Positions 2,504 to 19,351 of a DNA stretch of 64,000 nt are shown one piece after another. The DNA comes from an uncultured Collinsella sp. (GTDB taxonomy: Bacteria > Actinomycetota > Coriobacteriia > Coriobacteriales > Coriobacteriaceae). The position numbers and the translations under genes were made by a program. Under the pieces are notes generated by a model, which saw only the letters and a program-made list of their open reading frames with translations, was not told the origin of the DNA and ran no database searches. Where the stretch lies: contig CABQXN010000001.1 in NCBI GenBank assembly GCA_902468085.1, forward strand, positions 73,254 through 137,253. Reading direction: 5' to 3'. Position 1 is the stretch's first letter; each line of letters opens with the position of its first letter.

Positions 2504-2529
2504 CTTCGACCCAAGAGATTGGTGAATCA

Positions 2530-2928
2530 ATGAGAAAGATAGTTGTGGCGAGCCATTCCCTTCTCGCCCAGGGCTTCAAGGACACCCTCGAGTTCCTTAC
2601 GGGTAAGAGCGACGCCGTCAACGCCGTGTGCGCCTACGTGAACGACAACGGCGAGGGGCTCGACGCGGCGGTCGAGGCGGCTCTTTCGGGCACTGACGAG
2701 GTCGTCGTCCTCACCGACGCGCTCGGCGGCAGCGTGAACCAGCGCTTCTCCCGCTTCGCCTCCGACCGGATCCACGTGATCGCGGGTGTCAACCTCCCGC
2801 TCGCCATGACGGTCGCGCTCGCGCGCCCCGACGAGAAACTCGACTTCGACGCCCTCGTCGACGAGGCGCGCCAGCAGATCGTCTACGTGAACGGTGCCAG
2901 TTCCGCCGAGTGCGAAGACGACGAATAG
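2530..2928 (+). CDS. PTS mannose-family EIIA component
   Basis: 132 aa. MRKIVVASHSLLAQGFKDTLEFLTG resembles the EIIA-Man phosphohistidine region. Confidence 0.8.
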   Translation: MRKIVVASHSLLAQGFKDTLEFLTGKSDAVNAVCAYVNDNGEGLDAAVEAALSGTDEVVVLTDALGGSVNQRFSRFASDRIHVIAGVNLPLAMTVALARPDEKLDFDALVDEARQQIVYVNGASSAECEDDE

Positions 2929-2940
2929 AGGAGGTCGACG

Positions 2941-4065
2941 ATGAGAGAGTTCCTTAAGGACGTGTGGATGCACGGCGGTGAGGAAAGCCGCGCCATCACC
3001 CCCGAGAACATCACGGGCGAGAAGGGCCGTGCCGCCATGTCGGCCAGCCACCTCGGCGTCGGCCGCAAGGGCTCGTGCTGCGTGCCCCTTGAGTCCGGCG
3101 AGACCATCACGCTCGCGGACATCGAGGGCCCCGGCATCATCCGCCACATCTGGATGACCGTCCCCGACAAGACCGCCGCCGGCAGCTTCGTCATGCGCGA
3201 CCTCGTGCTGCGCTTCTACTGGGACGACGAGGAGACCCCCTCGGTCGAGTGCCCTGTCGGCGACTTCTTCTGCAACGGCTTCGGTGAGCGCGCCATCGTC
3301 AACTCGATGCCCATCTGCGTGAACCCGACGGGCGGCATGAACTGCTACTTCGAGATGCCTTTCAGGAAGCACGCCAAGGTCACGCTTACGAGCGAGCACC
3401 CCGGGTTCATTAAGTACATCTTCTACACGTTCAACTACGCGCTCACCGACGTGCCGGACGACGCCATGTACTTCCACGCCCGTTTTAACCGCGAGCGCAG
3501 CACCCGCAGGGGCGTCGACTACACCGTGCTCGACGGCGTGCGCGGTAAGGGCTACTACGTCGGCACCTACATGGCCCTGTGCGCCCTGGAGCGCTATTGG
3601 TGGGGCGAGGGCGAGATGAAGTTCTTCCTCGACGGCGACGAGGAGTTCCCCACGGTCACCTCGACGGGAGCCGAGGACTACTTCGGCGGTGCCTGGGCCT
3701 TCCTCGACAGGCCGCCCCATGCGCTGCCCGAGGCGCAGTGCTTCAACACGCTGTTCGCCGGCTACCCGTACCGCTCGACGCGCGACGCCACGCGCGACCG
3801 CTTCAGCGCGGGCAAGCCGAACCCGAACCCGATGCTCGCGACCAACGACGACGCGCTGCCCAGGCATGGCCTCTACAGGTGGCACCTTCCCGACCCGATC
3901 TCGTTCAAGGAGGACCTGCGCGTGACGTTCCAGGACCTCGGCAACGACGACATCAAGCTCTACGAGCGCGAGGATGACATCTCCACCGTCGCCTACTGGT
4001 ACCAAAGCGAGCCGCACGCCGTGCTCGCCCCGTTTGCCGCAAGGCAGGACCGCGTGCCCAGGTAG
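2941..4065 (+). CDS. DUF2961 / glycoside hydrolase family 172-like protein (cytoplasmic)
   Basis: 374 aa with no signal peptide. WxxGE, FFLDGDE and GAEDYFGGAW motifs are characteristic of DUF2961 (GH172, alpha-D-fructofuranosidase / difructose-dianhydride enzymes). Confidence 0.7.
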   Translation: MREFLKDVWMHGGEESRAITPENITGEKGRAAMSASHLGVGRKGSCCVPLESGETITLADIEGPGIIRHIWMTVPDKTAAGSFVMRDLVLRFYWDDEETPSVECPVGDFFCNGFGERAIVNSMPICVNPTGGMNCYFEMPFRKHAKVTLTSEHPGFIKYIFYTFNYALTDVPDDAMYFHARFNRERSTRRGVDYTVLDGVRGKGYYVGTYMALCALERYWWGEGEMKFFLDGDEEFPTVTSTGAEDYFGGAWAFLDRPPHALPEAQCFNTLFAGYPYRSTRDATRDRFSAGKPNPNPMLATNDDALPRHGLYRWHLPDPISFKEDLRVTFQDLGNDDIKLYEREDDISTVAYWYQSEPHAVLAPFAARQDRVPR

Positions 4066-4144
4066 GGTCGCCTCGAAACAAGCCAACGTTATGGGCGCCC
4101 GCGGTTGACCATGACTGCGGGCGTTCCTTTGTAAGGAGGATCAC

Positions 4145-5029
4145 ATGAGCGAAAAGCAAATGAGGCTCGGCGCCCTCGAGGCCGGCGGGACCAAGATGGT
4201 CTGTGCCGTGGTGTCCGGCGACGGCGAGGTCCTCGACCGTATGGAGACCCCGACGCTTATGCCCGCCGAGACCGTCCCACAAATGGTCGAGTGGTTCACC
4301 GCCCGTGATGTGAACGCGTTGGGCATCGGCGCCTTCGGCCCGACCTGCGTCGACCCCAACGATGAGCGCTACGGTTCCATCCTTCAGACGCCCAAGCTCG
4401 CGTGGCGAGGCTATGGTCTTCGCGCCGCGTTCGCCGACGCCCTCGGGATTCCGGTGGCCTACGACACGGACGTGAACGTTGCCTGCCTCGGCGAAGTAGT
4501 CTTCGGCTGCTGCAAGGGGCTCGAGGACGCCGTATACGTGACCATCGGCACCGGCGTGGGCGCGGGCGTCATGTGCGCGGGCAGGCTCCTTCACGGCATG
4601 CTGCACCCCGAGGCCGGCCACATGCTGGTAAGGACCCGTCCCACCGAGGAGGGACGCTGCGTCTGCCCGAGCCACGCGAGCTGTCTCGAGGGCCTCGCCT
4701 CCGGCCCCGCCATCGCCGCGCGCTGGGGAAAGCCCGCGGCCGAGCTCGCGGACAACGCTGAGGTGTGGGCGCTCGAGGGGGATTATCTGGGGCAGATGTG
4801 CGCGAACCTCGTGCTCATGTACTCGCCTCGCCGTATCGTCCTCGGCGGCGGCGTGATGCACCAGGAGCAGCTCTACGGCATCGTCCGCAAGAAGACCCTC
4901 GAATATCTGGGTGGCTACATCCAGACCGCCGAGCTTAAGGACATAGAGAGCTACATCTGCGCCCCGGGCTGCGGCGGCGACCAAGGAATCCTTGGCGCGG
5001 CCGAGCTGGCAAGAAGGGCGCTCGCGTAA
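4145..5029 (+). CDS. ROK-family sugar kinase (fructokinase-like)
   Basis: 294 aa. Has the LEAGGTK ATP-binding N-terminus and the CxCxxHxxC zinc motif (CVCPSHASC) of ROK kinases. RBS AAGGAGG at 4132. Confidence 0.8.
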   Translation: MSEKQMRLGALEAGGTKMVCAVVSGDGEVLDRMETPTLMPAETVPQMVEWFTARDVNALGIGAFGPTCVDPNDERYGSILQTPKLAWRGYGLRAAFADALGIPVAYDTDVNVACLGEVVFGCCKGLEDAVYVTIGTGVGAGVMCAGRLLHGMLHPEAGHMLVRTRPTEEGRCVCPSHASCLEGLASGPAIAARWGKPAAELADNAEVWALEGDYLGQMCANLVLMYSPRRIVLGGGVMHQEQLYGIVRKKTLEYLGGYIQTAELKDIESYICAPGCGGDQGILGAAELARRALA

Positions 5030-5064
5030 CTTGCGCTCTCTCCGCCATACAACGCGTTAAGAAA

Positions 5065-5120
5065 AGACGAGCGCTTCTTGCCAATTGGGCGGCAAGAAGT
5101 GCTCGTCTTTTGCATTTTTG
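5065..5120 (+). terminator. Rho-independent terminator after the PTS/GH172/kinase operon
   Basis: 18-bp stem AGACGAGCGCTTCTTGCC / GGCAAGAAGTGCTCGTCT with one G-T wobble, followed by a T-rich tract. Confidence 0.75.
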
Positions 5121-5213
5121 CCTCTCAAAATCTTATTTTCACGATTTGCATTTTCATCCCGTTGTCACCGACCCTTGCGAGAACCCGGAAAAAGCCGCTG
5201 ACGGAAGGGTCTC

Positions 5214-5489
5214 TCAAATCGTTGTAACCCAGCATATAGCCGCGACTTGTGACCTGCAGACGGCTGTCCCACGTGCCGATTTCCTTGGCGGCATCCGAAA
5301 CCGCAAAATATGCCCCACATCCTTGATTTTTGCAGTCTTAAGCCATGTTTTTGCGATCATCTTTACCGCCGTCCGATTGGCAGCATCAAAGACCAGCACG
5401 CCGCCGGGGAAAGCGTCCGCCATCCCCCGCACCAGTTCCCGGACCTGCTGGGTCAGAAAGTAATAGAACACCCCGGAGGCAAAGAACAC
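5214..5489 (-). pseudogene. Class I SAM-methyltransferase remnant (C-terminal fragment)
   Basis: 91-aa ORF. AFPGGVLVFDAAN resembles the methyltransferase motif region. No N-terminal SAM-binding part is present, and the surrounding 5.1-5.6 kb is otherwise non-coding. Confidence 0.25.
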
Positions 5490-5688
5490 CGCCCCGCGGG
5501 AGGCATCGATTTTGCTAAACCATGCGGTGTCTTTCAGGTCGCGTTGCCGCCTGTGGCTTCCGCTCGGGACGGGCGGTCACCCACGACCGCGCGCGAGGAC
5601 CGGAGAATCTTCACGATGGTAGTTGACGCCTAATACCTTGCATCGTATAGTGTGTATAGCACAGTATATGACGAGAGGAGGTGTGCGG

Positions 5689-6009
5689 ATGGAGGCCCAG
5701 ATGAAGCGCGGCTTCCTGGAGGCTTGCGTGCTCGCGGCCATTTCCGGCGAGGAGTCCTACGGCTACCAGATCGTGAAGGACGTGCCGTCGAGCATGGGGC
5801 TCACGGAGTCGACGCTCTACCCGCTGCTCAAGCGCCTGGAGAAGGCCGGGTGCATCACGGCGCGCTCCGCCGAGCACAACGGGCGGCTGCGCCGGTACTA
5901 CCGCATCACGGACGATGGGCGTGCGCGCATCGAGGAGTTCCTGGCCGAGTGGCCGTCCGTACGGGAGATTTACGCATACGTTGAGGGGGCGCACCATGAC
6001 GCGCGATGA
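5689..6009 (+). CDS. PadR-family transcriptional regulator
   Basis: MEAQMKRGFLEACVLAAISGEESYGYQI...LYPLLKRLEKAG is the canonical PadR winged helix. Confidence 0.8.
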   Translation: MEAQMKRGFLEACVLAAISGEESYGYQIVKDVPSSMGLTESTLYPLLKRLEKAGCITARSAEHNGRLRRYYRITDDGRARIEEFLAEWPSVREIYAYVEGAHHDAR

Positions 6010-6619
6010 GTTTCTGGGCCGGTTGGGCGAGCTGCTCGCCTGCCTGCCGGCCGAGCAGGTGGAGGAGACCAAGGCGTTCTACGCGGAGGCCATCGCCGAC
6101 CGCATGGAGGACGGTATGAGCGAGGAGGAGGCCGTGGCCGCCATGGGCGCGCTCGGCGAGGTGGCGGAGGCCACGCTCGACGACCTGCCCGCCGTGCCGC
6201 GCGCGATCGCGAGGACGCGCCGGCGCAGCACCGCGCTGCTGTGGGTGCTGACCATCGTGGGCTCCCCAGTGTGGGTGCCGCTGCTCGCCGCCTTCGCCGC
6301 CGTGGCCGTCACGGTCTATATCTGCATCTGGGTGCTGGCGCTCTGCGTGTGGATCGTCGCGGCGGCACTCGGGGGCGCGGGCGTAGTTGGGCTCCTGCTT
6401 GCCGTAAGCGGCGTCACCATCGGCCACTTCCCGTACGTCCTCGCCTCGGCGGGCGTGGGGCTCAGCCTCGTCGGCGTGGCGCTCTTCGTTGGTGCTGGCG
6501 CTTGGGCCGCCTCAAAACAAATTGCGCGCCTCTCGGCGCTCTGGGCGAGGAAGGCCGCCTCGCCCTTCTGGAAGGGTAAGGGCGAGAAGGGTGGCGCTGC
6601 CGCGTATCTCGCGGCGTAG
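5996..6619 (+). CDS. DUF1700-like membrane protein (PadR partner)
   Basis: MTRDEFLGRLGELLACLPAEQVEE...YAEAIADRMEDG followed by two transmembrane segments. ATGA overlap with PadR. Confidence 0.6.
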   Translation: MTRDEFLGRLGELLACLPAEQVEETKAFYAEAIADRMEDGMSEEEAVAAMGALGEVAEATLDDLPAVPRAIARTRRRSTALLWVLTIVGSPVWVPLLAAFAAVAVTVYICIWVLALCVWIVAAALGGAGVVGLLLAVSGVTIGHFPYVLASAGVGLSLVGVALFVGAGAWAASKQIARLSALWARKAASPFWKGKGEKGGAAAYLAA

Positions 6620-6625
6620 AAAGGA

Positions 6626-6889
6626 GTGAGTACCATGACCAGCGCGAAGAAGATCTACCTCGCCGTGGCGGGCGGGCTCGTTGCCGCGGGCGTTGTCCTC
6701 GCGGGCATTGGCTTTATCGCCTCGGGTTTCGACCCGGCCGTGTTCACAACCCAAATCGACACGCGCGACAGCACCATCGTGCTCGGCGGCGTCGAGGTGG
6801 ACGAATACGAGAGTATCCCGTTCATCAGCCAGCTCGCCAATCTGGGCGAGATCGACACCTCCGACGTCGCGGATCCCGCCGCGTCCTAG
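6626..6889 (+). CDS. DUF4097-like putative adhesin, N-terminal part only (truncated)
   Basis: 87 aa: a TM helix plus the start of a beta-rich domain. Homologues of the PadR/DUF1700/DUF4097 triad are about 250 aa. The gene stops where the accessory region begins. Confidence 0.35.
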   Translation: MSTMTSAKKIYLAVAGGLVAAGVVLAGIGFIASGFDPAVFTTQIDTRDSTIVLGGVEVDEYESIPFISQLANLGEIDTSDVADPAAS

Positions 6890-7304
6890 GCGCAGCGAGC
6901 CCGGGCGCTCTGCCCGCCAAGCTGCGTAAGCCGACGAAACCCGAACCTCGGCTCCAGCGCAACTGGTCTCAAGCCTGTGCCGATTCGCTCTCAGCGCCGC
7001 GCGGGGGCCCATGACGCATACCCAAAATCCATCCGAGGAGAAAAGAACGCAATGACGACAGCCGTGCCCCTCCGCCTTTACGGGGTCACGCAGGACCGGG
7101 AGCGACTGGGCCGGGCGGTGGGGCTGTGCTTGGATTGGCTACACTGATATGGACAGTTCCGTGAGGGGCGCGAGAGACGGGACTCCGGGGAGATCTCCGA
7201 GGAGGAGTACCTTGACTGGAAGCGTGGGTTCAGTGGAGCATGAACCTAATCTCTGTCTCTCTTGCTTTTTCTGATTTGTTGAGAAGCCGGCATTTGGGGG
7301 CATT

Positions 7305-8027
7305 TTGGATAGCGAACAGTTCAAACAAGAAGCTGAGAAAATAGAACAAAGCCTGAGTGCCTTGAGAGTCGCCGAGCGCAATGCAGTGATTCCCTTCATG
7401 AACGGCGACTTTACCCAATGGGATCTATATCTGGCATCCTCCTCTGAATATGCGATGAGATTGATAGACGGATTCATCTCCATGCTCGAGTCGAGGAATC
7501 TTGTTTGCGTCGCCCAGCTTCTCCGCGCACAGGTTGGAGTCTGCCTGCGGACATTCGCGTTATTTGCCGCCGAAGACCAGGATGACTTTCTCAAGCAGGT
7601 GTTTCAAGGTGTGCCTGTGAACAAGCTGAAAGATTTCTCGGGTGAGAAGATGTCCGATAGAAGACTTCAAGACTTACTCGCGAAGTCCGATCCAAAGGTA
7701 AAAGATGTATACAAGGTGACGTCTGGATTCGTCCACTTCTCTACTGATATTCTGCCGAGCATGGGTGTGCCTAGGGAGGGCTATGAGGTCGAGTTTAATT
7801 TTGGAGCCGAGCCCAACGAGAGAAACAATGTGCCTCTCGTGGAATGCGGCAAGGCGTTCTGCCACTATGTCGACCTGCATCTCCAGATGCTCCATAAGGT
7901 GATTGCTTCGGATGAATGGTATGCCGATCGATTCCGTATCGATTCCGATGGTTCTGCAGACGAAGCCTCGACAAGCGAGAAGGTGAAGGTCAAACGCATT
8001 GACGCTGCCTTGACAGCATCCCGATAA
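7305..8027 (+). CDS. Hypothetical acidic protein (accessory region)
   Basis: 240-aa ORF with a TTG start at 7305 (first ATG further in). Local GC is lower than the flanks. No recognisable domain. Confidence 0.35.
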   Translation: MDSEQFKQEAEKIEQSLSALRVAERNAVIPFMNGDFTQWDLYLASSSEYAMRLIDGFISMLESRNLVCVAQLLRAQVGVCLRTFALFAAEDQDDFLKQVFQGVPVNKLKDFSGEKMSDRRLQDLLAKSDPKVKDVYKVTSGFVHFSTDILPSMGVPREGYEVEFNFGAEPNERNNVPLVECGKAFCHYVDLHLQMLHKVIASDEWYADRFRIDSDGSADEASTSEKVKVKRIDAALTASR

Positions 8028-8373
8028 AATAACGAATGGGAGGCTCCCTGCGAAATGTGCGCTTCTGTATATTCTCGCTAGGAAGCCCCCGACCGATAAG
8101 CCGTCGTTGAGTTCAATTTGAGTTTAGCTCGGGTACCCGAAAATAGTCCAACTCTGATAAAGGGGGAGACGACGGTACACCACGTAGACGAGAGGTTATG
8201 GAAGTGCACGATTTGATTACCGAATGGGAATAAGCGATATTCGTTGATTTCAAGCCTCCGAACTGCGAAAACAGGTCGGGGGCTTCTTATTTTGCAACCT
8301 CTGTGCAACCTTTGCGGTTTCGCGCCCCGTGAACAGGGGACGTAGCACTGTTCACGTCTGGGCCCATGTCGGC

Positions 8374-8436
8374 ACCGATCAATGCCCGCGCTGCTTCTGC
8401 TTGCGCTTCAGCTTCCGCTGCTCGAAGCACGTCGCC
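8374..8436. repeat. Direct repeat copy A: remnant of the DUF2992 gene 3' end (att-like)
   Basis: About 62 bp matching 14364-14426 with about 5 mismatches. The minus-strand translation ...FEQRKLKRKQKQRGH* equals the C-terminus of the intact gene at 14368-14787. Confidence 0.7.
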
Positions 8437-8490
8437 CGGAGTTCCCCGCCAGAGGAGAACTGACCGTTCCTTGCGAAACCGCGAGACCAG

Positions 8491-9165
8491 CTATATCCGC
8501 TTGCTGCGGGCTTGCTTGAGCCAGTTCCTCTTGAAAGAGCCTATACCTCCGAAGAACTTGTTGTACGTCTCACCGTCCTCCTTGGCCTCGTACTTGACCA
8601 AGGCAAGTTCGATGGTGCAGAGGTAATCCGCCACCTGCTCGAGGCGGTAGTCGGTCATCGAGGTCTTGCGGCGTCGGACGACCCCTTTTGAGAGGATTTT
8701 GCCCACCGAGCGGTCGAGCGCCTGCTTGACGATATCCTGACCGTTGTCGTAGTAAACCTTCACGTCGTCGAAGGATTGAAAGAAGCCCAGGTGTTCAATC
8801 ATGGCAGAGGAGATATCGCGCCCCATACGCTCCATTAGCCTTGCCGGGTCTTCGAACTGGCTGCGGCGGTAGACGAACGTGATATAGGAAATGGGAAGTT
8901 TGCGGACGAACGAGGAGAAGTAGGCGAGCATCACCTTGCGCTGCTCGATGTTAAGAAACTCATAATCCTTGTGCCCGTTCATGAGAGGCTCGGAGTGAAA
9001 CGGAATGTTAGGGAGATCGGCCCTGGCAAGCTTGGCCTCATAGCCCGTGACCGCATCGGCGATGCTGTCTGCCTGGTCGTGAAAGACGAGTGTGAGCAGG
9101 TAGTAGCGAGCTTTGCCGCCGCGGTCGCCGCTCTCGTCGACGAAGATGCTGAGCTCCTTGGCCAA
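8491..9165 (-). CDS. DUF3800-family protein
   Basis: MAKELSIFVDESGDRGG has the IFxDESG signature of DUF3800. 224 aa. Confidence 0.65.
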   Translation of the reverse strand: MAKELSIFVDESGDRGGKARYYLLTLVFHDQADSIADAVTGYEAKLARADLPNIPFHSEPLMNGHKDYEFLNIEQRKVMLAYFSSFVRKLPISYITFVYRRSQFEDPARLMERMGRDISSAMIEHLGFFQSFDDVKVYYDNGQDIVKQALDRSVGKILSKGVVRRRKTSMTDYRLEQVADYLCTIELALVKYEAKEDGETYNKFFGGIGSFKRNWLKQARSKRI

Positions 9166-9479
9166 TGGGGACTCCTAATGGAATGGATAAAAAAATAGCC
9201 GGGGGACTCCCCCGGCACTTGGAGGTAGCTTAATGAGCCACCAACAACCTTATAGCATGCTCTGACGGTGAGTGCAAGGGGGGCGAGCCGGTACATGGCG
9301 TCGCGGCTGATGCGCAGCATCGCGCACGCCTCGTCGGCGTCGAATATCACGTTAGTCGATGCGATGAGCCACACCTGGTTCCTGCCAATGCTCTTGGTCA
9401 TGGTCGTCCTCGAGCTCCTTTCGTCTCGAGGTTCCCTCGCGTGCCCGGCCGCGGGCGGCTCCCAGGGCGGTCGCGGCAG

Positions 9480-9698
9480 TCATTTCCTCCTGCTCCTCGA
9501 CTCGACGTAGGCGTCCACTGACGCCCTCGACACCAGGAGCTTCCTGCCGAGCTTGTACGAATCGATCTTTCCCGACCAGATGAGGTCGTACGCCTTGTTT
9601 CGGCTCGCCCTCATGTACTCCTGCATCTCGATCACCGTCATCCATTCGTCGCGGCCCCGGTTGCCCTCGGGCGCGGCGCATTTCGTCGTGTTCGCCAT
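9480..9698 (-). CDS. Excisionase-like HTH DNA-binding protein
   Basis: C-terminal MTVIEMQEYMRASRNKAYDLIWSGKIDSYKLGRKLLV matches the Xis/MerR-like helix-turn-helix excisionase family. Start could instead be the internal Met (9641). Confidence 0.45.
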   Translation of the reverse strand: MANTTKCAAPEGNRGRDEWMTVIEMQEYMRASRNKAYDLIWSGKIDSYKLGRKLLVSRASVDAYVESRSRRK

Positions 9699-9882
9699 GG
9701 TTCCTCCAATCCTTCCGCGCGATGCGCCTGCGCGGTCCCGTGTGCGTTTTCGTCTGCGCGACGATTGAACCGCCTGACGGCGATTGGCGCGCACGGCGGG
9801 AGCGGAGATGGGTCGAGCTGGTCGGGTCTTCACGAAACGGCCATGATCCACACGTCTTAACTGGCAGCTAAGTCCCTGAAAA

Positions 9883-9907
9883 GTAAAAGGCGCCCATGCG
9901 GGCGCCT
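9883..9907. terminator. Hairpin GGCGCCC-atgc-GGGCGCC
   Basis: 7-bp GC stem in the intergenic region between the excisionase-like and XRE genes. Confidence 0.4.
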
Positions 9908-10189
9908 GCCTAATAACTGGAGTTGTTCGGTTGCGGTCGGAATGCTCGTCTCCCGCGGTGCTATCGTCCGGGGTCCGGCATCTGTCGTTCGCCTCTTCTG
10001 TCGTGTTTGATGTTGCGTGTTCTGCGAACGACCTTATGCAGGTTTTTTAACCCGTTGCCCCAGGTGCACCCAGATAAATGGTACCCATCCGTTGGGATAC
10101 GGACATTGTGGGAGGGCTGTCTGGGTAAGCTGGGATGTACGAGTGGCGGGGCTCTAAAAGCGATAAATCAAGTTAAAGGGCCTTGTGCT

Positions 10190-11059
10190 CTATTTTGTAA
10201 AACGCGAGGGCGCAATCAACTCGACGATTTCCCCGAACCTTTTCTGAACCATATAGCGACTTGCGCTTTCGTCTCGAACCAGGCGGTTTTCCTCGTCGTA
10301 GCAGTCGTCGATGGTCTTGCTAATCGCCTTCACCGCCTCCATGAATCGCGGCCGCTCCACAGGCGATACCCCGGCCGACTCAAAAACGGCCTCGTTGATC
10401 GCTTCTGCCTCATGAAGCTCTTCCTCAGGTGCGTCGGGCCCGGGTGCGACAAAGTCGTCGCGATACCTAAAGGCCCTGTTGACGAGTTCCTCCCCGTATT
10501 CTGCAACGACGGCCTCCGTTATATCGTCTCTCTTGTCATTAAGCCGAACCAAGCACGCCATTTCGTCGAGAAGCTCTGGGAGGATGGGCGATTTTAGGAT
10601 TTCGCTTATCATTGCGCTGTTCGAGCCCCGGCTTTCTCCGAGGTGGTACTTGCGTTCGAAATGCGTGATTTTGCGAACTTCCTCGAGGGCGGATTCCTCT
10701 ATCCCCGTGTACTCATGGGCATCCTGCGCCTTATAGGTCTTGCATTCGATATCGCCTATGAGATAGCCGAGATCGACCTCGAGTACCGCGGCGATTTGAA
10801 GCATGATTTCGAATTTGGGAAAAGGCCGCACATGGCCCTTCCTGTCCGGAAGACCAGCATTGACCCACGCGCTGACGTTCTTCTGCGTAAACTGATCGCT
10901 CTCGCCATAGAACCGATTGTTTATCAGCTCCGCGAGACCATTCTGCGTTAGGCTCCGCTCCTTCATGAGCCCAAGGAGATTGTCTCGCCACGATTTAAGT
11001 CTTGACTTCACGACTTCGTTTGACTGCAGAAGTTCTGCCTTTGGACCACTCATCTTCAA
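10190..11059 (-). CDS. XRE-family HTH regulator with uncharacterised C-terminal domain
   Basis: N-terminal LKSWRDNLLGLMKERSLTQNGLAELIN is an XRE-type HTH. The acidic 200-aa C-terminal region is unassigned. RBS GGAGG at 11068. Confidence 0.6.
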   Translation of the reverse strand: MKMSGPKAELLQSNEVVKSRLKSWRDNLLGLMKERSLTQNGLAELINNRFYGESDQFTQKNVSAWVNAGLPDRKGHVRPFPKFEIMLQIAAVLEVDLGYLIGDIECKTYKAQDAHEYTGIEESALEEVRKITHFERKYHLGESRGSNSAMISEILKSPILPELLDEMACLVRLNDKRDDITEAVVAEYGEELVNRAFRYRDDFVAPGPDAPEEELHEAEAINEAVFESAGVSPVERPRFMEAVKAISKTIDDCYDEENRLVRDESASRYMVQKRFGEIVELIAPSRFTK

Positions 11060-11180
11060 TATCCTCCTAAGTGACTATTACATGATTCAATCTACAGTTA
11101 TTACCGTTAATCGATTCTACCATTCTGCTTTTCATCGAGGCATACTAACAGGCAGAGAGCAAGTAGACAAGGAGTGCTAG

Positions 11181-12158
11181 ATGAGCAAGACCTATACCAA
11201 CGCGGAGATTCTCGATCGGCTCAAGAGTCTTGAGGGGCTGCTTCTGGAGCGAGTTTTCGAAACCTCGTACAGCGAGAGCCTGCGTACCTACGACCTTATC
11301 GACCACCTGCGAAGCAAGGCCCACGACCTTGGGTTGGAGGGGGAGGACACCTACGCCGCCCTCATTCGGGATCTAGAGAAGCTCAGTTCGACCATAGGCG
11401 GGCTGATCAACGGGAAGCGCGGCGAGCTTCTCGCCGCAAAGAGTCTCAAATGTCTTCGCGGCGATAGCCTGCTGCTTTCCAACATCGCGCTTCCTAATGG
11501 AGACTCGTTCGAGGAATACGATCAAGTTCTAATCGCCCGTTCGGGCGTATACGTGATCGAGGTAAAGAACTATCGAAACGACGTCGTGATAGACGATGGG
11601 GGAATCCTGCGCTGCGGTCCTCGCTCCTACAACGTCGGTGAGCGAATGCGTGAGAAGATGCATGCCCTTTGGGATGCGATTCAATTCTCTTCTGACGGCT
11701 GCATGAGCGAAGAGGACGTGAATGGCATGCTTCTTTTCGTGAATAACGAGGCAAGTGTTACCGATTTCTTCCATCGAGTCCCCGTGATGCGTTGTGGTCA
11801 GATTGTCTACAGCATCGAAGACGCAAACCGATGCGACGAGAAGCTGTCTTGGGAGGACATGGTTCGCATCAAGTCCGTCCTCCTCGCACGAAAGACGGCG
11901 GCAGAGTTTCCAATGCCGCTTGACGAAAACCGTGTAAAAAGCGAGCTCGAGGATTTCCTCGATCTGGTCGAGGCCAAGACTGCAAAGACCGCTGCTAAAT
12001 CAATAGCTGCTGGCCACAACGAAGTTGATTCTTCAACAACACTCGATAACCATGCTCGACATTCACAATTGCCCAGCTGGGTACCCGCCGTGGCGGCTGT
12101 CATCTCTGGTTTGGCAATAGGCGCGGGTGGGCTATTCCTGCATGCAAAGAAAGGATAA
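11181..12158 (+). CDS. NERD (nuclease-related) domain membrane protein
   Basis: Residues 80-190 (AAKSL...LSNIALPNG...YDQVLIARSGVYVIEVKNY) fit the NERD domain. Has a C-terminal TM helix. Divergent from the XRE gene. Confidence 0.6.
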   Translation: MSKTYTNAEILDRLKSLEGLLLERVFETSYSESLRTYDLIDHLRSKAHDLGLEGEDTYAALIRDLEKLSSTIGGLINGKRGELLAAKSLKCLRGDSLLLSNIALPNGDSFEEYDQVLIARSGVYVIEVKNYRNDVVIDDGGILRCGPRSYNVGERMREKMHALWDAIQFSSDGCMSEEDVNGMLLFVNNEASVTDFFHRVPVMRCGQIVYSIEDANRCDEKLSWEDMVRIKSVLLARKTAAEFPMPLDENRVKSELEDFLDLVEAKTAKTAAKSIAAGHNEVDSSTTLDNHARHSQLPSWVPAVAAVISGLAIGAGGLFLHAKKG

Positions 12159-12213
12159 GGAGCCTGGCTGTTGGATGCGGAAAGCACAGTTTGACTACAA
12201 AAAAGGAGTAAGG

Positions 12214-12510
12214 ATGACCGAAAACACGATGGGGTCCATTGCAATAAGCGACGTGACGATTGATGCCGTGAACGAGAAGGCCATTAATTGTCGGGGCATG
12301 CTCAAATCCCTTGCCGATGCGACGAACGGCATCACCGGGCCTCAGGCTGGCCTTCTCGGATGCCTCGTCGTTTCCGTTGCCGGGGTTGCGGGATATGGAA
12401 TCTACGCCCTTTGCGACCTGGTCAAATCTGGACACCCCGTCGAACTCACCTCTGGAGGGGTGCGCTTTGCGGCGAATACGGCAGCGCTCGGCGAGGCGAG
12501 CAGCCTCTAA
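12214..12510 (+). CDS. Small glycine-zipper membrane peptide (bacteriocin-like?)
   Basis: 98 aa. RBS AAAGGAG at 12202. Hydrophobic core AGLLGCLVVSVAGVAGYGIYAL carries GxxxG-type motifs. Confidence 0.3.
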   Translation: MTENTMGSIAISDVTIDAVNEKAINCRGMLKSLADATNGITGPQAGLLGCLVVSVAGVAGYGIYALCDLVKSGHPVELTSGGVRFAANTAALGEASSL

Positions 12511-12529
12511 TCGGCAGGTAGGAGAATCG

Positions 12530-12823
12530 ATGCAGATGAATGAGATGCCCTCGATCGGGACCACGCTGACTTACGGCGAGGCGATTAAAGCATGTGACCG
12601 CTTCGAGCGGACGATGCTCGAGAAGGCGTACGGGGCCGAACTCCTGCCCGCGGTGGGGCTGTACGACCTGCTCTGGCAGCTTGAGTCGCTCGCGCAGAAG
12701 TTCGGAATCGAGGGCAAAAAGGGCCTTCTCAAGGCTCAAGAGGGAAATCCGGTCGTTTTCGAGCGAGAGGACCGCTCTGGCGAACGGGATGAACGGCGAG
12801 AGGTTCTACCTGCTGCAAGATGA
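12530..12823 (+). CDS. Small hypothetical protein
   Basis: 97-aa ORF 19 nt after the preceding peptide gene. RBS GGAG at 12521. Confidence 0.25.
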   Translation: MQMNEMPSIGTTLTYGEAIKACDRFERTMLEKAYGAELLPAVGLYDLLWQLESLAQKFGIEGKKGLLKAQEGNPVVFEREDRSGERDERREVLPAAR

Positions 12824-13364
12824 ATCGGCGCTCAGGCAGCATAATGAAACGCACCTTTTCAAGGTTGGAATCGACGAGGGACAGGCTCGCCGGCGACCGC
12901 GACGAGACCATCGAGCTGCTTTCAAAAGAGTCTGCCAAGACCGATGAGCACGGCAACACGTATTCACCTGATTGTCTGGGACGGGATTCCGACGGTTTGG
13001 CGAAGACCTCTTCATGAAATGGGCCGGAATCGGGTTTTGCGCGATGACGGTCTGCTTGGGAATCTCGATACTCGTCCGTTCGGCCTTCCAGATCAGCTTC
13101 TGTTCCAAGTGGTTCCTCTAATGCGGGGACCGTTGAACGAGCAAGCTTTCATTCAATCGCCAACTCATGAGCAAGCCATCCGAGACTACTCACTTTTCCG
13201 CTGATGGCGAAGACCTGCGACCTGCGGTTTTGCAAACTGCATGCAAGCCACCTGCGCTGATTCGCTTAAGATTGCAACTGGTGGCTTGCAGGCTAAAGTG
13301 CGTTTGAGTTTCGAAACGGGCGCTATCGGCGCTATAGAGCCTCCAAAGGCGGCCCACCGCGCCC

Positions 13365-13444
13365 TTTGGGGCAAAAACAAAAACTCAACCCACTGAGTTT
13401 GAAAAAAGTTTTGAAGTTGTCCCAGCTTTTGTCCCCGAAGCCGA
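13365..13444. repeat. About 80-bp repeat, copy 1 (TTTGGGGCAAAA...CTCAAC..CTGAGTT..GAA...)
   Basis: Roughly 75% identical to 19394-19475. Both copies are intergenic. Confidence 0.5.
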
Positions 13445-14363
13445 TGAAACACGACATGGTGCTACTTGGCGGCGCTCGATTAGAGACGGCAGCGAAAACT
13501 GGATGCAACTAGAATGATGGGGCAGCAAAATCAGAACCATCGAGTGGGAGTAGCCGAGGGTCTAAAACGGCACGTCACAAAAGGTAGTGAATAGCAATGA
13601 ATCCCCAGGTAGAATTGGCTATCTGGGGCTTCTTCATGCAACGCCGCGATGTGCTCCATAACGCTCTATTTGGGGAATTTAGTTCAGGCAATGAAGACGG
13701 GCGCATGAACGCAGAAAGGACGGCACGAGGCCCACTTGAATCCACGGCACTCATCCGCATTATCGTTGCCCCAATGCCCTCTGCATCAAGCGAGGTCGGC
13801 GGTTAAGTAACGGCTCGGCGAGTGTTATTTTGAGAGCTGCGCGCATCTAAGGCGAGTTTTCGTGGTAAAAACTACTTGCCGGAAGCCGCGGCTTTCAGAG
13901 TACGGCTTACGTGCACGTTTAACCTCCGTGGGCGACGGGGTGCCGCAAGGCGTAGAGTATCGCTCACCTGTAGGGGCAGCGCCGTTTCAGGACCGAGGGC
14001 TCTGCCTACTACGAGACGCTCCAGCGCATCATCGACGGCAACACCAAGCGCATTGTCTCCGAGTGTCAGGCGTACCTCGACCGCTACGAGCGCGAGGGAA
14101 GGCCTCGTTTTGCCGTCGACATCGATCGCATCGTGGGGCTGCTGGAGGGCGAGAAGTAGGGCGCCTCGGCTCAGTCTCGAGCCATGCGGAGTCGCTCCGC
14201 ATTTTTGAACGCCGCGTGTGCGTTCCAAATACTTGAGAAACAAGCTGTGAAGTGCGGTGGCGCGCCCGTGCCCGTGCATAGCCGTCACCATTAGCGTCTA
14301 CGCGGCGTCGGCTTCAAGTGGAACTGGCACCGCTGCTGTATATGGTTTGCCTTGCTGCAAATG

Positions 14364-14426
14364 GCGATCAATGCCCACGATGCTTCTGCTTGCGCTTCAG
14401 CTTTCGCTGCTCGAAGCGCGTCTCCG
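14364..14426. repeat. Direct repeat copy B: 3' end of the intact DUF2992 gene
   Basis: Matches 8374-8436. Includes the stop codon (TCA at 14368-14370 on the plus strand). Confidence 0.7.
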
Positions 14427-14787
14427 CCTCATCCGCGCGACGCTGGCTTCTTGCTTGAGCCGACTCCCGCTTCATCGCTTCCCGCTGTGCCGCGAGCGCC
14501 TGTTGTGCCTTGGTGCTCACCGCGGGCCGTTTAAGGGCTTTCGCTGCCTCGCGAGCGCGCCGCTTGGGGTTCTTCGCGGGCTTGCTCGCCTCGGTCGGCT
14601 CGTCGCCGAAGAACGAGAGCATTGCCCATTTGCCTGTAATGAAATGCAGGATTTCCTCATTGGATGGCTCCGCGCCGAAGACGATGCGAGCGACGCCGTA
14701 TCTGCCGTCCTCGACATGCTCCGCCAGCCCGACCCAGAATTGACCGTCGTGATATACGGTCAGGGTGGACGACACACTGATCTGCAT
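14368..14787 (-). CDS. DUF2992 (YjdC-like) protein
   Basis: 139 aa: MQISVSSTLTVYHDGQFWVGL...IVFGAEPS then a lysine/arginine-rich tail. RBS AAGGAGG at 14795-14801. Confidence 0.7.
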   Translation of the reverse strand: MQISVSSTLTVYHDGQFWVGLAEHVEDGRYGVARIVFGAEPSNEEILHFITGKWAMLSFFGDEPTEASKPAKNPKRRAREAAKALKRPAVSTKAQQALAAQREAMKRESAQARSQRRADEAETRFEQRKLKRKQKHRGH

Positions 14788-15000
14788 GGTTGGTTCCTCC
14801 TTTATGTAGATGACCATGCAGAGAAGGGACAACCAAGGAGGCAGGTTACTGATGCGGACTAGCGCACGCCCACGACTACCCGACGGGGACTGTGTTTTCA
14901 TCTCTGGTGGTTGGATTGTAGCACGTGCGAATGCGCCCGGCATCGCTGCTGACATGGCGCTACTGGGATTCGCTCCTCGATGCATCCTTGTGTACATTGC

Positions 15001-15049
15001 CTTCTCGGTTTCGAAACTTTAGAAATAATCGAGTTTCGAAACCGAGAAG
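15001..15049. repeat. Perfect 17-bp-stem hairpin (CTTCTCGGTTTCGAAAC / GTTTCGAAACCGAGAAG)
   Basis: 15-nt AT-rich loop. Sits exactly at the 5' truncation point of the following ATPase pseudogene. Confidence 0.6.
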
Positions 15050-15071
15050 GAGTGGATTATGGCTTGGGTAG

Positions 15072-15620
15072 ACCGCAATACGTACCGACTCCACTGTGTT
15101 GGAGAGGCTGGCCGAGTACATGATGGACAACTCCGGCGACCTCAACTCGCCCAACAACATCGCCAACGTCCTCGACGCCAACAGGGTTCCTACCAACCAC
15201 GTCACCGTCGGGCGCTACATCTCGTACCTCCGCGACGCTTTCGCCCTCTATGAGGCGAAGCGCTATGACATCAAGGGGAAGAAGTACCTGAGCACGCAGG
15301 CGAAGCATTACGTATGCGACTCGGGAATGCGCTATGCGGTTCTGGGAACGCGCGACATGGACTGGGGCCGCATGTACGAGAACGCGGTCTTCCTGGAGCT
15401 GATGAGGCGAGGGTACGAGACCTACGTCGGGAAGCTGTACCAAAAGGAGGTTGACTTCGTTGCGAAGAGGGGGTCGGAGCTTGTCTACATCCAGGTAAGT
15501 GACGACATCAGCTCCGAATCGACGCTCGAGAGGGAGCTCGCGCCGCTTCTGTCCGTCAGGGATGCGTTCCCGAAGGTTCTCATTGACGACAGGGGTGAGC
15601 GTGGTGCTGTTCAAGAAGGA
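15072..15620 (+). pseudogene. DUF4143/AAA-ATPase family gene, 5'-truncated and frameshifted
   Basis: The reading frame opens at an in-frame TAG at 15069 with ...LERLAEYMMD, which is internal sequence of this family. The frame switches near 15600 (ORFs 15096..15845 and 15499..16104 overlap). Confidence 0.45.
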
Positions 15621-15868
15621 CACGTACCTGTACGTCAAGGCCGGCAAGAGCACATGGGCAGAGGCGCTGGTTCTGTCGCTGGCAAAGGGGACCGTCAGCA
15701 TCGAGAGCCTCTTCGCCGAGTCGACCTACAGCGCGAAGACCAAGCGGGTCTACGCGGTCCCCAGCAAGCTGAGCTACCACGGCAGGACCTTCAAGGTCGC
15801 CACGCTCGGTTGCAGCGTATACCCCAAGGCGAGCAAGGCGGTTGACTGCCGTTGCCTAAGCAGTCTTG

Positions 15869-16336
15869 TTATATCGTTGCCGCAGTCCCCGGCGCAGTGC
15901 GCAGCTCCTGCCGAATCTTCCGAAAGCGTTCCGGGACTTCGGCAAGCTCCATCTTCTGCGGGGCATCGACCGTACCCGCTTCCTTCGCCGTTTCGTAATA
16001 CCAGCACTTGTAATCCACCATCTCCATGGTGTGCTGCAATTCCGCCATCCGCTGTTTCAGAACTTCTTGTTGGCGCCGGAACATGGCAAGGCGCAAATCG
16101 ATAGTGTCGTCTCCTTGCAGCGCCATCTCGATGTACTGCCGGATGTCCTTGATGGACATCCCGGCTTTCTTCATGCAGCCGATCACCTGCAGCCATTCGA
16201 TATCTGATTCCCGGAACATGCGAATGCCACCGGAGGAGCGCTCCACGAAGGGCAGCAGCCCCTCCTTGTCGTAGTAGCGCAAGGTGGACGCCGCAACCCC
16301 CAGCAGCTTCGCCATTTCCCCCACCGTATAGACCAT
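15869..16336 (-). CDS. MerR-family transcriptional regulator
   Basis: MVYTVGEMAKLLGVAASTLRYYDKEGLL is the MerR HTH. Has a coiled-coil dimerisation region. RBS GGAGGG at 16343-16348. Confidence 0.8.
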   Translation of the reverse strand: MVYTVGEMAKLLGVAASTLRYYDKEGLLPFVERSSGGIRMFRESDIEWLQVIGCMKKAGMSIKDIRQYIEMALQGDDTIDLRLAMFRRQQEVLKQRMAELQHTMEMVDYKCWYYETAKEAGTVDAPQKMELAEVPERFRKIRQELRTAPGTAATI

Positions 16337-17990: not shown

Positions 17991-18860
17991 ATGATTTTGA
18001 ATGAAACCTACCCGTTGGCAAACGGAGTTCAGGTTCCCAAACTGGGACTGGGCACCTGGTTCATCGACGATGCCGAGGCGGCGGAAGCCGTTCGCGAGGC
18101 GGTAAAGCTGGGCTATCGCCTGATCGACACCGCGCAGGCCTATGGAAACGAACGCGGCGTCGGCGAGGGCGTGCGCACCTGCGGCGTTCGCCGGGAAGAG
18201 CTTTTCGTCGCCAGCAAGATCGCGGCAGAGCTGAAGACCTACGAGGATGCGGCGAAGTCCATCGATGAGACGCTGGAGAGGATGGGGCTCGGCTGCCTCG
18301 ACCAGATGATCATCCACTCTCCCCAGCCGTGGAGCGAGTTCCGTGTGGAGAAGCGCTATTTCGAGGAGAACAAGGAGGTCTGGCGTGCGTTGGAGGATGC
18401 GCGGGCGGCGGGCAAGGTCAAGGTAATCGGCGTGTCCAACTTCCTGCAAGATGACCTTGAGAACCTCCTGGGCTCTTGCCGCGTGATGCCCATGGTCAAT
18501 CAGATCCTCCTGCACATCACCAACACCGATTCGGCATTGGTGGACTTCTGCAAGGCGCAGGGCATCCAGGTGGAGGCATACTCTCCCATTGCCCACGGTG
18601 AGGCGCTGAAGAATCCGGCGATCGTTAAGATGGCAGAGAAGTACGGCGTATCTGCCGCCCAGCTCTGCATCCGCTATGTCCTTCAGCTTGGAGCCGTCGC
18701 GCTTCCCAAGACGGCAGATCCCGCCCACATGGAAAGCAACGCGGACGTGGATTTCGCGATCTCCGAGGAAGACATGGAAACTCTCAAGAACATGGAGCGC
18801 ATCGCCAATTATGGTGACTTCAGCGCATTTCCCGTGTTCAGCGGAAAGCCTCTTGCATGA
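17991..18860 (+). CDS. Aldo/keto reductase (2,5-diketo-D-gluconate reductase-like)
   Basis: 289 aa. VPKLGLGTW...YRLIDTAQAYGNE...IIHSPQP are AKR catalytic motifs. Confidence 0.85.
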   Translation: MILNETYPLANGVQVPKLGLGTWFIDDAEAAEAVREAVKLGYRLIDTAQAYGNERGVGEGVRTCGVRREELFVASKIAAELKTYEDAAKSIDETLERMGLGCLDQMIIHSPQPWSEFRVEKRYFEENKEVWRALEDARAAGKVKVIGVSNFLQDDLENLLGSCRVMPMVNQILLHITNTDSALVDFCKAQGIQVEAYSPIAHGEALKNPAIVKMAEKYGVSAAQLCIRYVLQLGAVALPKTADPAHMESNADVDFAISEEDMETLKNMERIANYGDFSAFPVFSGKPLA

Positions 18861-18874
18861 GGAGAAAGCGTGAA

Positions 18875-19351
18875 ATGAAAACCTTGATTCTGTACTACTC
18901 CTACGGAGGCAACACGAAGCGCATCGCCGAGATGATCCAGAGGAAAATCGGTGGGGATATTGCTCGTATGGATACGGTTGTTCCCTACGATGGCGATTAT
19001 GATGAAGTCGTCAATCAGGGGCAGCGTGAGATTGCCGAGGGTTATTGCCCGGAACTGAAGCCGCTGCACATTGGCTGGAGAGATTACGACACCATCATCT
19101 TGGGTTCTCCTGTCTGGTGGTACACCTTTGCGCCTGCCATGCGCAGTTTCCTGGAGCAGGCTGACCTGACCGGGAAGATCGTGTATCCGTTTGCCACCAA
19201 TGGCGGCTGGCTGGGACACGCGCTGAAGGACTTTGAGGAAGCCTGCAAGGGCGCAATCGTGAAGCCGGGCCTCGATGTGCAGTTCGATGAATCCATGCTC
19301 CGTACTTCTGAGAAAGATATTCAGGCATGGATTAATACAATCCGAAGATAA
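18875..19351 (+). CDS. Flavodoxin-like protein
   Basis: MKTLILYYSYGGNTKRIAEMI is a flavodoxin FMN-binding loop. 158 aa. Confidence 0.75.
   Translation: MKTLILYYSYGGNTKRIAEMIQRKIGGDIARMDTVVPYDGDYDEVVNQGQREIAEGYCPELKPLHIGWRDYDTIILGSPVWWYTFAPAMRSFLEQADLTGKIVYPFATNGGWLGHALKDFEEACKGAIVKPGLDVQFDESMLRTSEKDIQAWINTIRR

Follow-up and report, generated by a model that had tools for sequence, protein, structure and literature searches.

Does the second copy of a gene's 3′-end, lying ∼6 kb from the intact gene, mark the border of a mobile element or the relic of another event? This question is raised by the window analysed here, a 64-kb (64,000-nt) stretch of DNA from an uncultured Collinsella sp. Positions 8376–8436 and 14365–14425 of the window align without gaps, with 56 of 61 nt identical (92%), 5 mismatches and a longest exact run of 23 nt. 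In this respect the first-pass annotation, which had reported direct repeats of ∼62 bp with 5 mismatches and identified them as the duplicated 3′-end of a DUF2992 gene, was correct to within ≤2 nt in its coordinates; the right copy is the tail of the intact gene, and the left copy is still in frame, tblastn reading it as FEQRKLKRKQKQRGH followed by a stop. Attachment (att) sites classically lie at the 3′-ends of tRNA or protein genes, and the pair resembles the trace of an element that duplicates such an end, being a short in-frame copy, in direct orientation and a few kilobases from the intact gene. A match by chance or low complexity, the latter named at the time as one of the cases that would refute this reading, has practically negligible probability. 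The repeat does contain a short GCTTC-type periodicity (TRF score 33–40), but a 21-nt piece of it, with ≤3 mismatches allowed, occurs at only two sites across the 64 kb where shuffled sequences give an expectation of 0; moreover, besides the identities and the frame shared with the DUF2992 C-terminus, the same stump is kept in ∼15 other loci.

In 80 Collinsella genomes, in which DUF2992 orthologues are 90–96% identical, the native order is the riboswitch and DUF2992 convergent to guaA, and in five loci of relatives (L009, L010, L022, L023 and L031) the two stop codons are 99 nt apart, with a spacer of ∼93 nt. The riboswitch of the window matches RF01764 over its full length (56.4 bits against a gathering score of 45). 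The window ends short of guaA itself, and so covers neither the far end of the array nor any integrase or ICE that may reside there in this genome. The guaA protein ends in KPPATIEWE-stop; the last codons of the gene are ATCGAGTGGGAATAA (reverse complement TTATTCCCACTCGAT), and a 16-nt core, TAYTCCCACTCGATGG, is the reverse complement of those encoding TIEWE-stop. Within 2 mismatches of TAYTCCCACTCGATGG, 112 cores were found in 80 GTDB loci, every one of them on the same strand as DUF2992; the opposite strand has none. It is at this core, between DUF2992 and guaA, that elements pile up.

Two such cores lie in the window and bound a unit of 5.3 kb (Table 1). Read on the plus strand, core 1 is a guaA 3′-end stump, SKIRTIEWE-stop, the site at 13542 giving TIEWE-stop, and core 2 reads LITEWE-stop, the site at 8222 giving ITEWE-stop. 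Because core 2 is degenerate, the copy in the window may no longer be recombinable.

Table 1. Features of the probable guaA array in the window (positions in the 64-kb stretch)
Feature	Position	Strand	Remark
5′-truncated LCM-type methyltransferase fragment	5113–5542	−	remnant of MTase-LCM unit
Next accreted block	5543–8216	+	Pfam and gene calls
HAAS-domain protein and PadR, genes of that block	about 5689–6889		
84-aa truncated protein, same block			
240-aa protein, same block	7305–8027		
att core 2, degenerate, TTATTCCCATTCGGTAA	8217–8233	−	13/17 matches; right border of unit and left border of next block
Spacer ‘gamma’, DUF2992-to-guaA intergenic variant with hairpins	8234–8375	−	travels with stump
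DUF2992 3′-end stump, left repeat copy	8376–8436	−	61 nt
DUF3800 protein, 224 aa	8491–9165	−	Pfam PF12686, 6.6e-7
Excisionase-family HTH_17 protein, 72 aa	9480–9698	−	Pfam PF12728, 4e-12
287-aa protein, XRE-like by eye	10190–11053	−	variable middle of unit
NERD (nuclease-related domain) protein, 325 aa	11181–12158	+	Pfam PF08378, 4.3e-11
Four small ORFs (98, 97, 65 and 35 aa), cargo	12214–13121	+	gene calls on identical contigs
Conserved ∼400-nt non-coding arm after core	13157–13536	−	seen in many Collinsella units
att core 1, TACTCCCACTCGATGG	13537–13552	−	15/16 core matches; left border of unit
Chromosome-side flank, DUF2992 to core 1	13553–14364	.	contains remnant of 149-aa gene
Remnant of 149-aa gene, C-terminal 60 codons	13977–14159	+	312 nt lost
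Right repeat copy	14365–14425		last 58 nt of DUF2992 (∼19 codons and stop) and 3 nt past stop
Intact DUF2992 (yjdF-family) gene	14368–14787	−	Pfam PF11208, 3.6e-42
yjdF/azaaromatic riboswitch, leader of DUF2992 gene	14809–14911	−	Rfam RF01764
5′-truncated DUF4143 ATPase gene	15096–15845	+	divergent from riboswitch; Pfam PF13635 only, N-terminal AAA part absent

From 13552 to 8217 the unit holds the arm, the small ORFs, the NERD, XRE-like, HTH_17 and DUF3800 genes, the DUF2992 stump and the spacer. The arm is 79–90% identical in >30 loci with variable neighbours; it has no Rfam match, and covariation in its alignment is weak. None of the four small ORFs matches Pfam or PADLOC, nor does the 287-aa protein match Pfam, NCBIfam or PADLOC. 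The unit is a mosaic whose middle (10143–12245) is represented by other alleles in relatives; in L089–L098 the 325-aa NERD protein is swapped for a 382-aa NERD allele and the 287-aa gene for a 199-aa gene. The excisionase-like HTH gene reported earlier is confirmed, the protein also matching TIGR01764 (excise) at 44.6 bits against a cutoff of 28.8, and a truncated second HTH_17 ORF is present in the unit. The segment that includes this gene (9282–10249) is 86–88% identical to the core-proximal end of an integrative and conjugative element (ICE) with a type IV secretion system (T4SS), beside the guaA core, in L073 and ∼12 other loci. DUF3800 always adjoins the DUF2992 stump (window, L073/L076, L028/L068, L072 and L089–L098). 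The first ∼50 nt of gamma stand after full-length DUF2992 genes in L070 and L099–L102, and in L089 gamma leads into the core and then guaA.

The earlier statements that the interval contains horizontally acquired DNA and that no recombinase lies between the repeats both hold: Pfam showed no recombinase domain in any sizeable ORF, and a tblastn query of the window with the related L024 integrase gave no match. Between the cores (8217–13552), no recombinase, relaxase or T4SS match was found among all called genes with Pfam, NCBIfam and PADLOC, and Tn916-type modules are absent; the gene lists of 10 other copies of the unit likewise contain no integrase, conjugation or mobilisation genes.

On the chromosome side, the 149-aa gene is intact in L003 (987–1436) and resembles a TenpIN type III toxin only weakly (1.1e-7, under the cutoff), while full-length homologues of the truncated DUF4143 gene in L038 and L028 have 407–421 aa. 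Beyond core 2, the block with the 240-aa and PadR genes recurs in L025/L026, where a DUF2992 spacer and a partial core come before it, and the LCM fragment corresponds, at 96–99% identity, to the 3′ portion of an LCM gene (276 aa; Pfam PF04072) located before guaA in L008-type loci.

The unit and its borders are also seen in other strains. In L089, L091, L092 and L098 it adjoins guaA without intervening blocks and carries an identical stump, and in L089 and L092 it is bordered on both sides by the perfect 16-nt TATTCCCACTCGATGG. Four left flanks join it exactly at the core 1 sequence, i.e. the 149-aa remnant (window and L048), MerR with 407 nt (L089 and L097), DUF6273 (L090 and L093) and a histidine kinase (L095), the last of which adjoins guaA itself in L014, L030 and L079. 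Past core 2 follow guaA (L089), another arm (L073/L076), an integrase-bearing element (L024) or the 240-aa/PadR block (window, L090, L095 and L097). In at least five independent flank combinations the unit ends, to the nucleotide, at 16 nt that match the end of guaA exactly. Neither a circular form nor an excision product at strain level was observed, and these varied contexts could in part reflect homologous exchange between strains instead of site-specific moves. An empty site is also available: L048 is 94% identical to positions 14956–13537 of the window (with the 312-nt deletion), after which the core runs straight into guaA.

These data bear directly on the interpretation first given to the repeats, that the 61-bp copies are attL and attR and the 6 kb between them an element whose integrase was lost or acts in trans. 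We consider this highly improbable, and it is largely refuted already by the stump that persists without its partner: in L089, L091, L092 and L098 the cargo is present with a 100% identical stump, and no full DUF2992 gene occurs in the 4.9–10 kb captured upstream of it. Nor do the repeats delimit the element, as the context switches fall at 13537–13552 and 8217–8233, both of them copies of the guaA-end core. The stretch 13553–14364, formerly placed inside the element, runs into guaA at the core in L048 and stands after DUF2992 in ∼50 genomes that have no cargo. Moreover, several genomes have two full-length DUF2992 genes (in tandem in L011, L045, L057 and L066), which could not be produced by duplication of a 61-bp att site. 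Taken together, the partner-less stump, the core borders, the flank in L048 and the double full-length genes make guaA, not DUF2992, the target, and the stump a passenger relic. The empty site proposed as a check, DUF2992 joined to position 8375 between the flanks of the window, was not found in 80 genomes or a metagenome scan, in which a full DUF2992 gene with the gamma spacer occurred only in relatives 89–93% identical and with other flanks. Unlike the copies made by 3′-end-duplicating elements, the DUF2992 copy is not a recombination site, persists without a partner and lies away from the borders of presence and absence.

Some details do favour a role for the DUF2992 3′-end. The repeat keeps its frame and ends 3 nt past the stop codon, and L003 agrees fully (100%) with the window as far as 14401 but diverges by 3.8% past that point, the switch falling inside the repeat. 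The stumps have near-equal 5′ limits beside DUF3800 in the window, beside a 47%-identical DUF3800 in L072 and beside unrelated DNA in L038, and a 28-nt class of stumps shares a common limit in L024 and L058/L060; against this, the L024 stump adjoins an IS256-family transposase fragment, which suggests ordinary disruption. From the cuts at nearly the same codon beside the two DUF3800 genes (47% aa identity) and the L038 DNA, and from the 28-nt class in two contexts, one might propose that the DUF2992 3′-end is a second attachment or target site of its own, serving an uncharacterised module linked to DUF3800. In that case an insertion system, either recombinase-independent or with a novel recombinase, would be nested in the guaA array and marked by DUF3800 or a partner, but we regard this as very unlikely. 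In the reading that we prefer, the left repeat is what decay has left of the 3′-end of another DUF2992 copy; it lies together with the spacer of that copy where the unit comes nearest to guaA, and is a captured piece of the chromosome neighbouring the att site and not a recombination site. This reading does not account for the cutting of the copy to 61 nt, and the similar cut position beside unrelated DNA in L038 may point to a non-random process.

Machinery that could act on the cores is present at guaA in relatives. A tyrosine integrase gene (18045–19208) lies 1.2 kb from the core and guaA in L035, and in L024 an integrase gene (12175–13239; Phage_integrase, 3e-17) adjoins the core; an integrase of its own beside the att end, absent from the unit in the window, was seen only in these two relatives. 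In L073, DUF2992, spacer and core are followed by genes for a T4SS coupling protein, PrgI and VirB4-like proteins. The homologous HTH_17 segment is terminal in this ICE and internal in the unit, and the two are not collinear; simple deletion from the L073 ICE would not yield the unit.

Based on these observations, the window probably contains part of an array of integrative elements built up by tandem accretion at the Collinsella guaA 3′-end, and the unit is best read as a remnant dependent on functions in trans, like the cis-mobilisable elements (CIMEs) of other bacteria. In this model, the last codons of guaA would serve as att core for tyrosine-integrase elements, and successive insertions followed by decay would leave several cores, all in direct orientation and each the border of a foreign DNA block. 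The interval originally annotated would then span two things, the DUF2992 chromosome-side flank (13553–14364) and most of the 5.3-kb unit. For the unit to move, a co-resident ICE or genomic island would have to supply an integrase of matching specificity that recombines the flanking cores, and the unit's own HTH_17 excisionase-like protein may help. Past moves of the blocks were presumably integrase-catalysed. Alternatively, the locus might be a hotspot lacking site-specific mobility, in which blocks are exchanged by homology between DUF2992 copies, 400-nt arms and guaA ends, with illegitimate deletions, the stump being a decayed tandem DUF2992 paralogue. Many block borders off the cores (e.g. 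13807, 13977, 14302, 5542 and 5113), the allelic swaps in the middle of the unit, the truncated DUF4143, LCM and 149-aa genes and the full-length tandem DUF2992 genes favour this view. We nevertheless think it unlikely, because it does not account for the nucleotide-exact guaA-end borders in their several flank combinations, for the single orientation of all the cores or for the presence of integrase genes and of an ICE at these cores, and the core is a documented att core of guaA-targeting islands (PMC4844618, PMC13418153).

That documented core is GAGTGGGAATA at the guaA 3′-end, used by Tn5801/Tn6647-like and GIflu-1 islands (PMC4844618; bioRxiv 10.64898/2026.03.26.714560; PMC13418153), and ATE-1, from the actinobacterium Trueperella, is one of the IMEs that target guaA (PMC5704250). 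Tyrosine-integrase islands at the guaA 3′-end are thus described in Firmicutes (Tn5801/Tn6647-like), Proteobacteria (GIflu-1/GIsul2) and Actinobacteria (ATE-1) (PMC4844618, PMC13418153, PMC5704250). Our locus resembles them in its core, TATTCCCACTC being the 11-bp GAGTGGGAATA published for the guaA stop codon in reverse complement, in the direct-repeat cores at both ends and in the L035 integrase beside guaA, whereas the unit in the window has no integrase, Tn916-type conjugation module or resistance genes. For the accretion of CIMEs, the model is the set of ICESt1/ICESt3-related islands at the fda 3′-end of Streptococcus thermophilus (PMC5704250). Like these, the unit has on both sides direct core copies that derive from a conserved gene's 3′-end (perfect in L089 and L092), carries neither integrase nor transfer genes and stands in tandem with other blocks, and in relatives the site is also occupied by islands with integrases and by an ICE. 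In contrast to them, the target is guaA and not fda, the host belongs to the Coriobacteriia, one core of the unit is degenerate, its mobility is predicted from sequence, and it keeps an excisionase-like gene and a relic of the neighbouring DUF2992.

Mobile islands are well known to land at guaA, so the island array seen here in gut Collinsella is of an ordinary kind; the unit is a known kind of element and reveals no new mechanism. This actinobacterium is common in the human gut, and the 3′-end of its guaA gene is a heavily used landing site, at which integrase-bearing islands, a T4SS conjugative element, AbiD-type abortive-infection genes and integrase-less core-bounded blocks have piled up, which should be useful for annotating Collinsella accessory genomes and in searches for cargo that may serve in defence. 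When a gene neighbours a real integration hotspot, a short in-frame copy of its 3′-end does not suffice as evidence of an att pair. Here, the riboswitch-controlled DUF2992 neighbour has been repeatedly copied, moved and truncated along with the blocks at the guaA site.

The 5.3-kb unit between core 1 and core 2, two copies of a 16-nt sequence from the 3′ end of guaA, is best read as a CIME-like block (CIME, cis-mobilizable element) within an array built by tandem accretion at the 3′ end of Collinsella guaA, and is of a kind already known. CIMEs and the accretion route to tandem arrays were defined in PMC5704250, guaA-targeting IMEs include the actinobacterial ATE-1 (PMC5704250), and Tn5801/Tn6647-like and GIflu-1 islands use GAGTGGGAATA at the guaA 3′ end as their att core (PMC4844618; bioRxiv 10.64898/2026.03.26.714560; PMC13418153). 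Read from DUF2992 towards guaA, the window holds intact DUF2992 with its flank (to 13553), core 1, the unit and a degenerate core 2, and past this the 240-aa/PadR block, a truncated LCM gene (5113-5542) and conserved chromosome.

Features of the locus, and flanks of the unit in the window and in comparison loci
Feature	Position	Strand	Remarks
DUF2992, intact	14368-14787	minus	PF11208, 3.6e-42; 3′ end is the right repeat copy
yjdF/azaaromatic riboswitch, DUF2992 leader	14809-14911	minus	RF01764
Core 1	13552-13537	minus	TACTCCCACTCGATGG; plus strand reads ..SKIRTIEWE*
Four small ORFs	right of NERD gene
NERD	11181-12158	plus
287-aa gene	between HTH_17 and NERD		no family match
Excisionase-family HTH_17, 72 aa	9480-9698	minus
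HTH_17-like ORF, truncated	between DUF3800 and 72-aa HTH_17 gene
DUF3800	8491-9165	minus
Core 2, degenerate	8233-8217	minus	TTATTCCCATTCGGTAA; plus strand reads ..LITEWE*
Unit left flank, window			149-aa gene remnant
Unit left flank, L089 and L097			MerR + 407 nt
Unit left flank, L090 and L093			DUF6273 gene
Unit left flank, L095			histidine-kinase stretch; adjoins guaA in L014, L030, L079
Unit right flank, L089			guaA
Unit right flank, window, L090, L095 and L097			240-aa/PadR block
Unit right flank, L073/L076			arm of another unit
Unit right flank, L024			integrase-bearing element

Pairwise alignment of 8376-8436 (the stump) with 14365-14425 gave an ungapped direct repeat of 61 nt with 5 mismatches and an identical centre of 23 nt, in which the left copy keeps the last 17 DUF2992 residues in frame; when a 21-nt piece was searched with up to 3 mismatches, the two repeat sites were the only ones in the window (0 expected). 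The repeated DUF2992 3′ end reported by the first-pass annotation is thus real, and its description of integrase-less acquired DNA with an excisionase-like HTH gene also held: Pfam on the useful-size ORFs of 7000-15900 and on large ORFs elsewhere, together with tblastn with the integrase of locus L024, found no recombinase in the 64 kb. Between the small ORFs and the right repeat, ~1.3 kb has no convincing ORF. PADLOC gave no match for the unit's genes, an AbiD match being limited to the Abi_2 gene of relatives, and a PDB sequence search returned nothing meaningful for DUF3800.

The placement of the borders did not survive junction alignment. The same annotation had bounded the element by the repeats, with DUF2992 as target, but the unit starts and stops at one 16-nt sequence, TAYTCCCACTCGATGG, which is perfect at both unit ends in strain contig L089 and whose reverse complement is the guaA end (guaA of L089 finishes ..SKPPATIEWE*). 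In five species riboswitch-DUF2992 and guaA are convergent: 99 nt separate their stop codons, and the core lies at that of guaA. This is the native, unoccupied arrangement. Cores with up to two mismatches numbered 112 in 80 species loci, every one on the DUF2992 strand and at most four per locus. Locus L048 is 94% identical to window 14956-13537, shares its 312-nt deletion, and then passes from core directly to guaA; this junction gives core 1 its empty site, and 13553-14364, previously assigned to the element, is therefore chromosome-side DNA. Of 22 block-border breakpoints inspected, two proved to carry the guaA core, and no motif was common to all. Elsewhere, at 49546-49560 (minus strand), lies a third ‘..EWE*’-type site, TACTCCCATTCG, which matches the core at 12/16 positions and has AT-rich surroundings (GC 0.47); chance alone would give ~0.3 sites of this type.

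Moreover, the stump occurs on its own. Exact-protein look-ups together with a scan of GTDB species representatives assign the window to Collinsella (Coriobacteriia), and they supplied the comparison set of 80 loci centred on DUF2992 orthologues (L007-L086) and strain-level contigs (L001-L006, L087-L098); an identical 72-aa HTH_17 protein is encoded on 22 contigs. In strain contigs L089, L091, L092 and L098 the cargo (small ORFs, a NERD allele, a 199-aa gene, HTH_17, DUF3800, the stump and a 155-nt spacer) is followed by GMP synthase (guaA). Their stump is 100% identical to the window's 61 nt, the 155-nt spacer is also shared, and no full DUF2992 lies in the sequence captured on the upstream side of the stump (4.9-10 kb); therefore the stump exists without its supposed partner repeat, which argues against reading the two copies as attL and attR. 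A metagenome scan for the stump's spacer preceded by full DUF2992 returned four contigs, all 89-93% relatives with other flanks, and thus no empty site for the element as originally drawn.

An event directed at DUF2992 itself nevertheless has some points in its favour: the stump cut position recurs within a few nucleotides beside a 47%-identical DUF3800 (L072) and beside unrelated DNA (L038), a 28-nt stump class is shared by L024, where it adjoins an IS256-family transposase fragment, and L058/L060, and the identity between strain contig L003 and the window drops from 100% to 96% at about 14400, within the right repeat. That switch is also compatible with homologous exchange among multiple DUF2992 copies. 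Other observations speak against a simple att pair: two full-length riboswitch-DUF2992 modules lie 3-8 kb apart in L011, L045, L057 and L066, a second DUF2992 copy is frameshifted in L025/L026, and stumps are present in further Collinsella loci. We give a DUF2992-directed event a small probability. The likeliest origin of the stump is a DUF2992 copy that formerly adjoined the att site; full-length DUF2992 with the first ~50 nt of the stump's spacer is found in L070 and in four metagenome contigs. This copy would have been cut on its 5′ side by DUF3800-bearing DNA, and the truncated copy would now be carried along within the core-bounded unit.

In structure the unit, which closes with DUF3800, the stump and the spacer, fits a CIME: it has att repeats, and genes for an integrase or for transfer are absent. 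Judged from the several contexts in which its sequence is found, it may be mobile, and the degeneracy of core 2 points to a window copy that may be immobilised. In the MerR + 407-nt flank, the last ~200 nt match the guaA-proximal end of the integrase-bearing island in L035, where a 387-aa tyrosine recombinase lies 1.2 kb from core and guaA inside an 8.9-kb core-to-core island, a candidate intact IME of the guaA-site family. In this island (L035 11414-20383) the tyrosine integrase adjoins guaA, and aminoglycoside-phosphotransferase-like, nucleotidyltransferase-like and MobC-like genes and HsdS fragments were noted by eye. A 354-aa integrase (Phage_integrase 3e-17, Arm-DNA-bind_4) adjoins a core in L024, and an AbiD-type Abi_2 gene is frequent cargo at guaA cores. 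In L073 and ~12 further loci, a counterpart of window 9282-10249 (HTH_17), 86-88% identical, comes after DUF2992, spacer and core; the genes next to it, for a T4SS coupling protein (3e-54), for PrgI and for a VirB4-like ATPase, make this element an ICE. DUF2992 was considered as its target and dropped, since the native DUF2992-spacer-core-guaA order puts the ICE at the guaA core.

In L073/L076 a 95% copy of window 8221-8710 is located past the position of the window's left end, and the DUF3800-stump-spacer segment may therefore be present twice in this strain. Contigs L004, L088 and L001 end at window 8263, 8292 and 8667, and the breaks of two independent assemblies thus fall close to the stump, in a stretch of ~400 nt.

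Modules combine as a mosaic at this locus, and many of their breakpoints are shared. The nearest relatives of the window's left chromosome (L040, L043, L046, L047, L054 and L084; 99% over 1-5542) have the order DUF2992, 149-aa gene, methyltransferase, LCM gene and then window 5112 leftwards; they lack the stump, DUF3800 and the PadR block, and their difference from the window spans 13806 to 5543, not repeat to repeat. In L008-type loci (~10420-13965) the 149-aa gene, methyltransferase and LCM block lies inside the DUF2992-guaA spacer, flanked by direct repeats of ~13 nt (CATACAGCAGCGG; compare window 14330-14364), and its methyltransferase-LCM part is also bounded by guaA cores. The window keeps a remnant of the 149-aa gene (13977-14159, plus) from which 312 nt are gone, start included; the gene is intact at L003 987-1436, and the deleted form is also kept in L048 and L022-type loci. 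A type III toxin-antitoxin role for it was rejected: there are no upstream ToxI-like tandem repeats and no Pfam match, and the sole match, given by the intact form, is to TenpIN below threshold.

Directly after the core, a ~400-nt non-coding arm (13157-13536, minus) is 79-90% conserved in >30 loci with variable adjacent genes (alignment A2) and includes a terminator-like hairpin with a T-run behind it. A permissive Rfam scan of 12900-14400, arm included, gave nothing, and an RNA was not called, RNAalifold on 15 copies giving weak covariation (-1.46 kcal/mol); arm sites for an integrase, or a promoter/terminator, could lie in the arm. At the gathering threshold, the yjdF riboswitch is the sole Rfam match in the whole window. 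Together with DUF2992 it forms a 572-nt module (14361-14932) present in 1-2 full copies per Collinsella locus, and in L022-type loci a riboswitch-leader-like piece (84% to window 15017-14777) precedes a different gene. A perfect 19-nt inverted repeat (15000-15050) lies between the riboswitch and a DUF4143 ATPase gene, at the recurrent breakpoint 15052/15084; this gene (15096-15845, plus) is 5′-truncated, the full length in relatives being 407-421 aa. Adjacent GyrA/ParC-like (746 aa) and GyrB/ParE-like (665 aa) genes (23593-27876, minus) lie ~9 kb from the array and are probably chromosomal backbone, since their order is conserved in L038.
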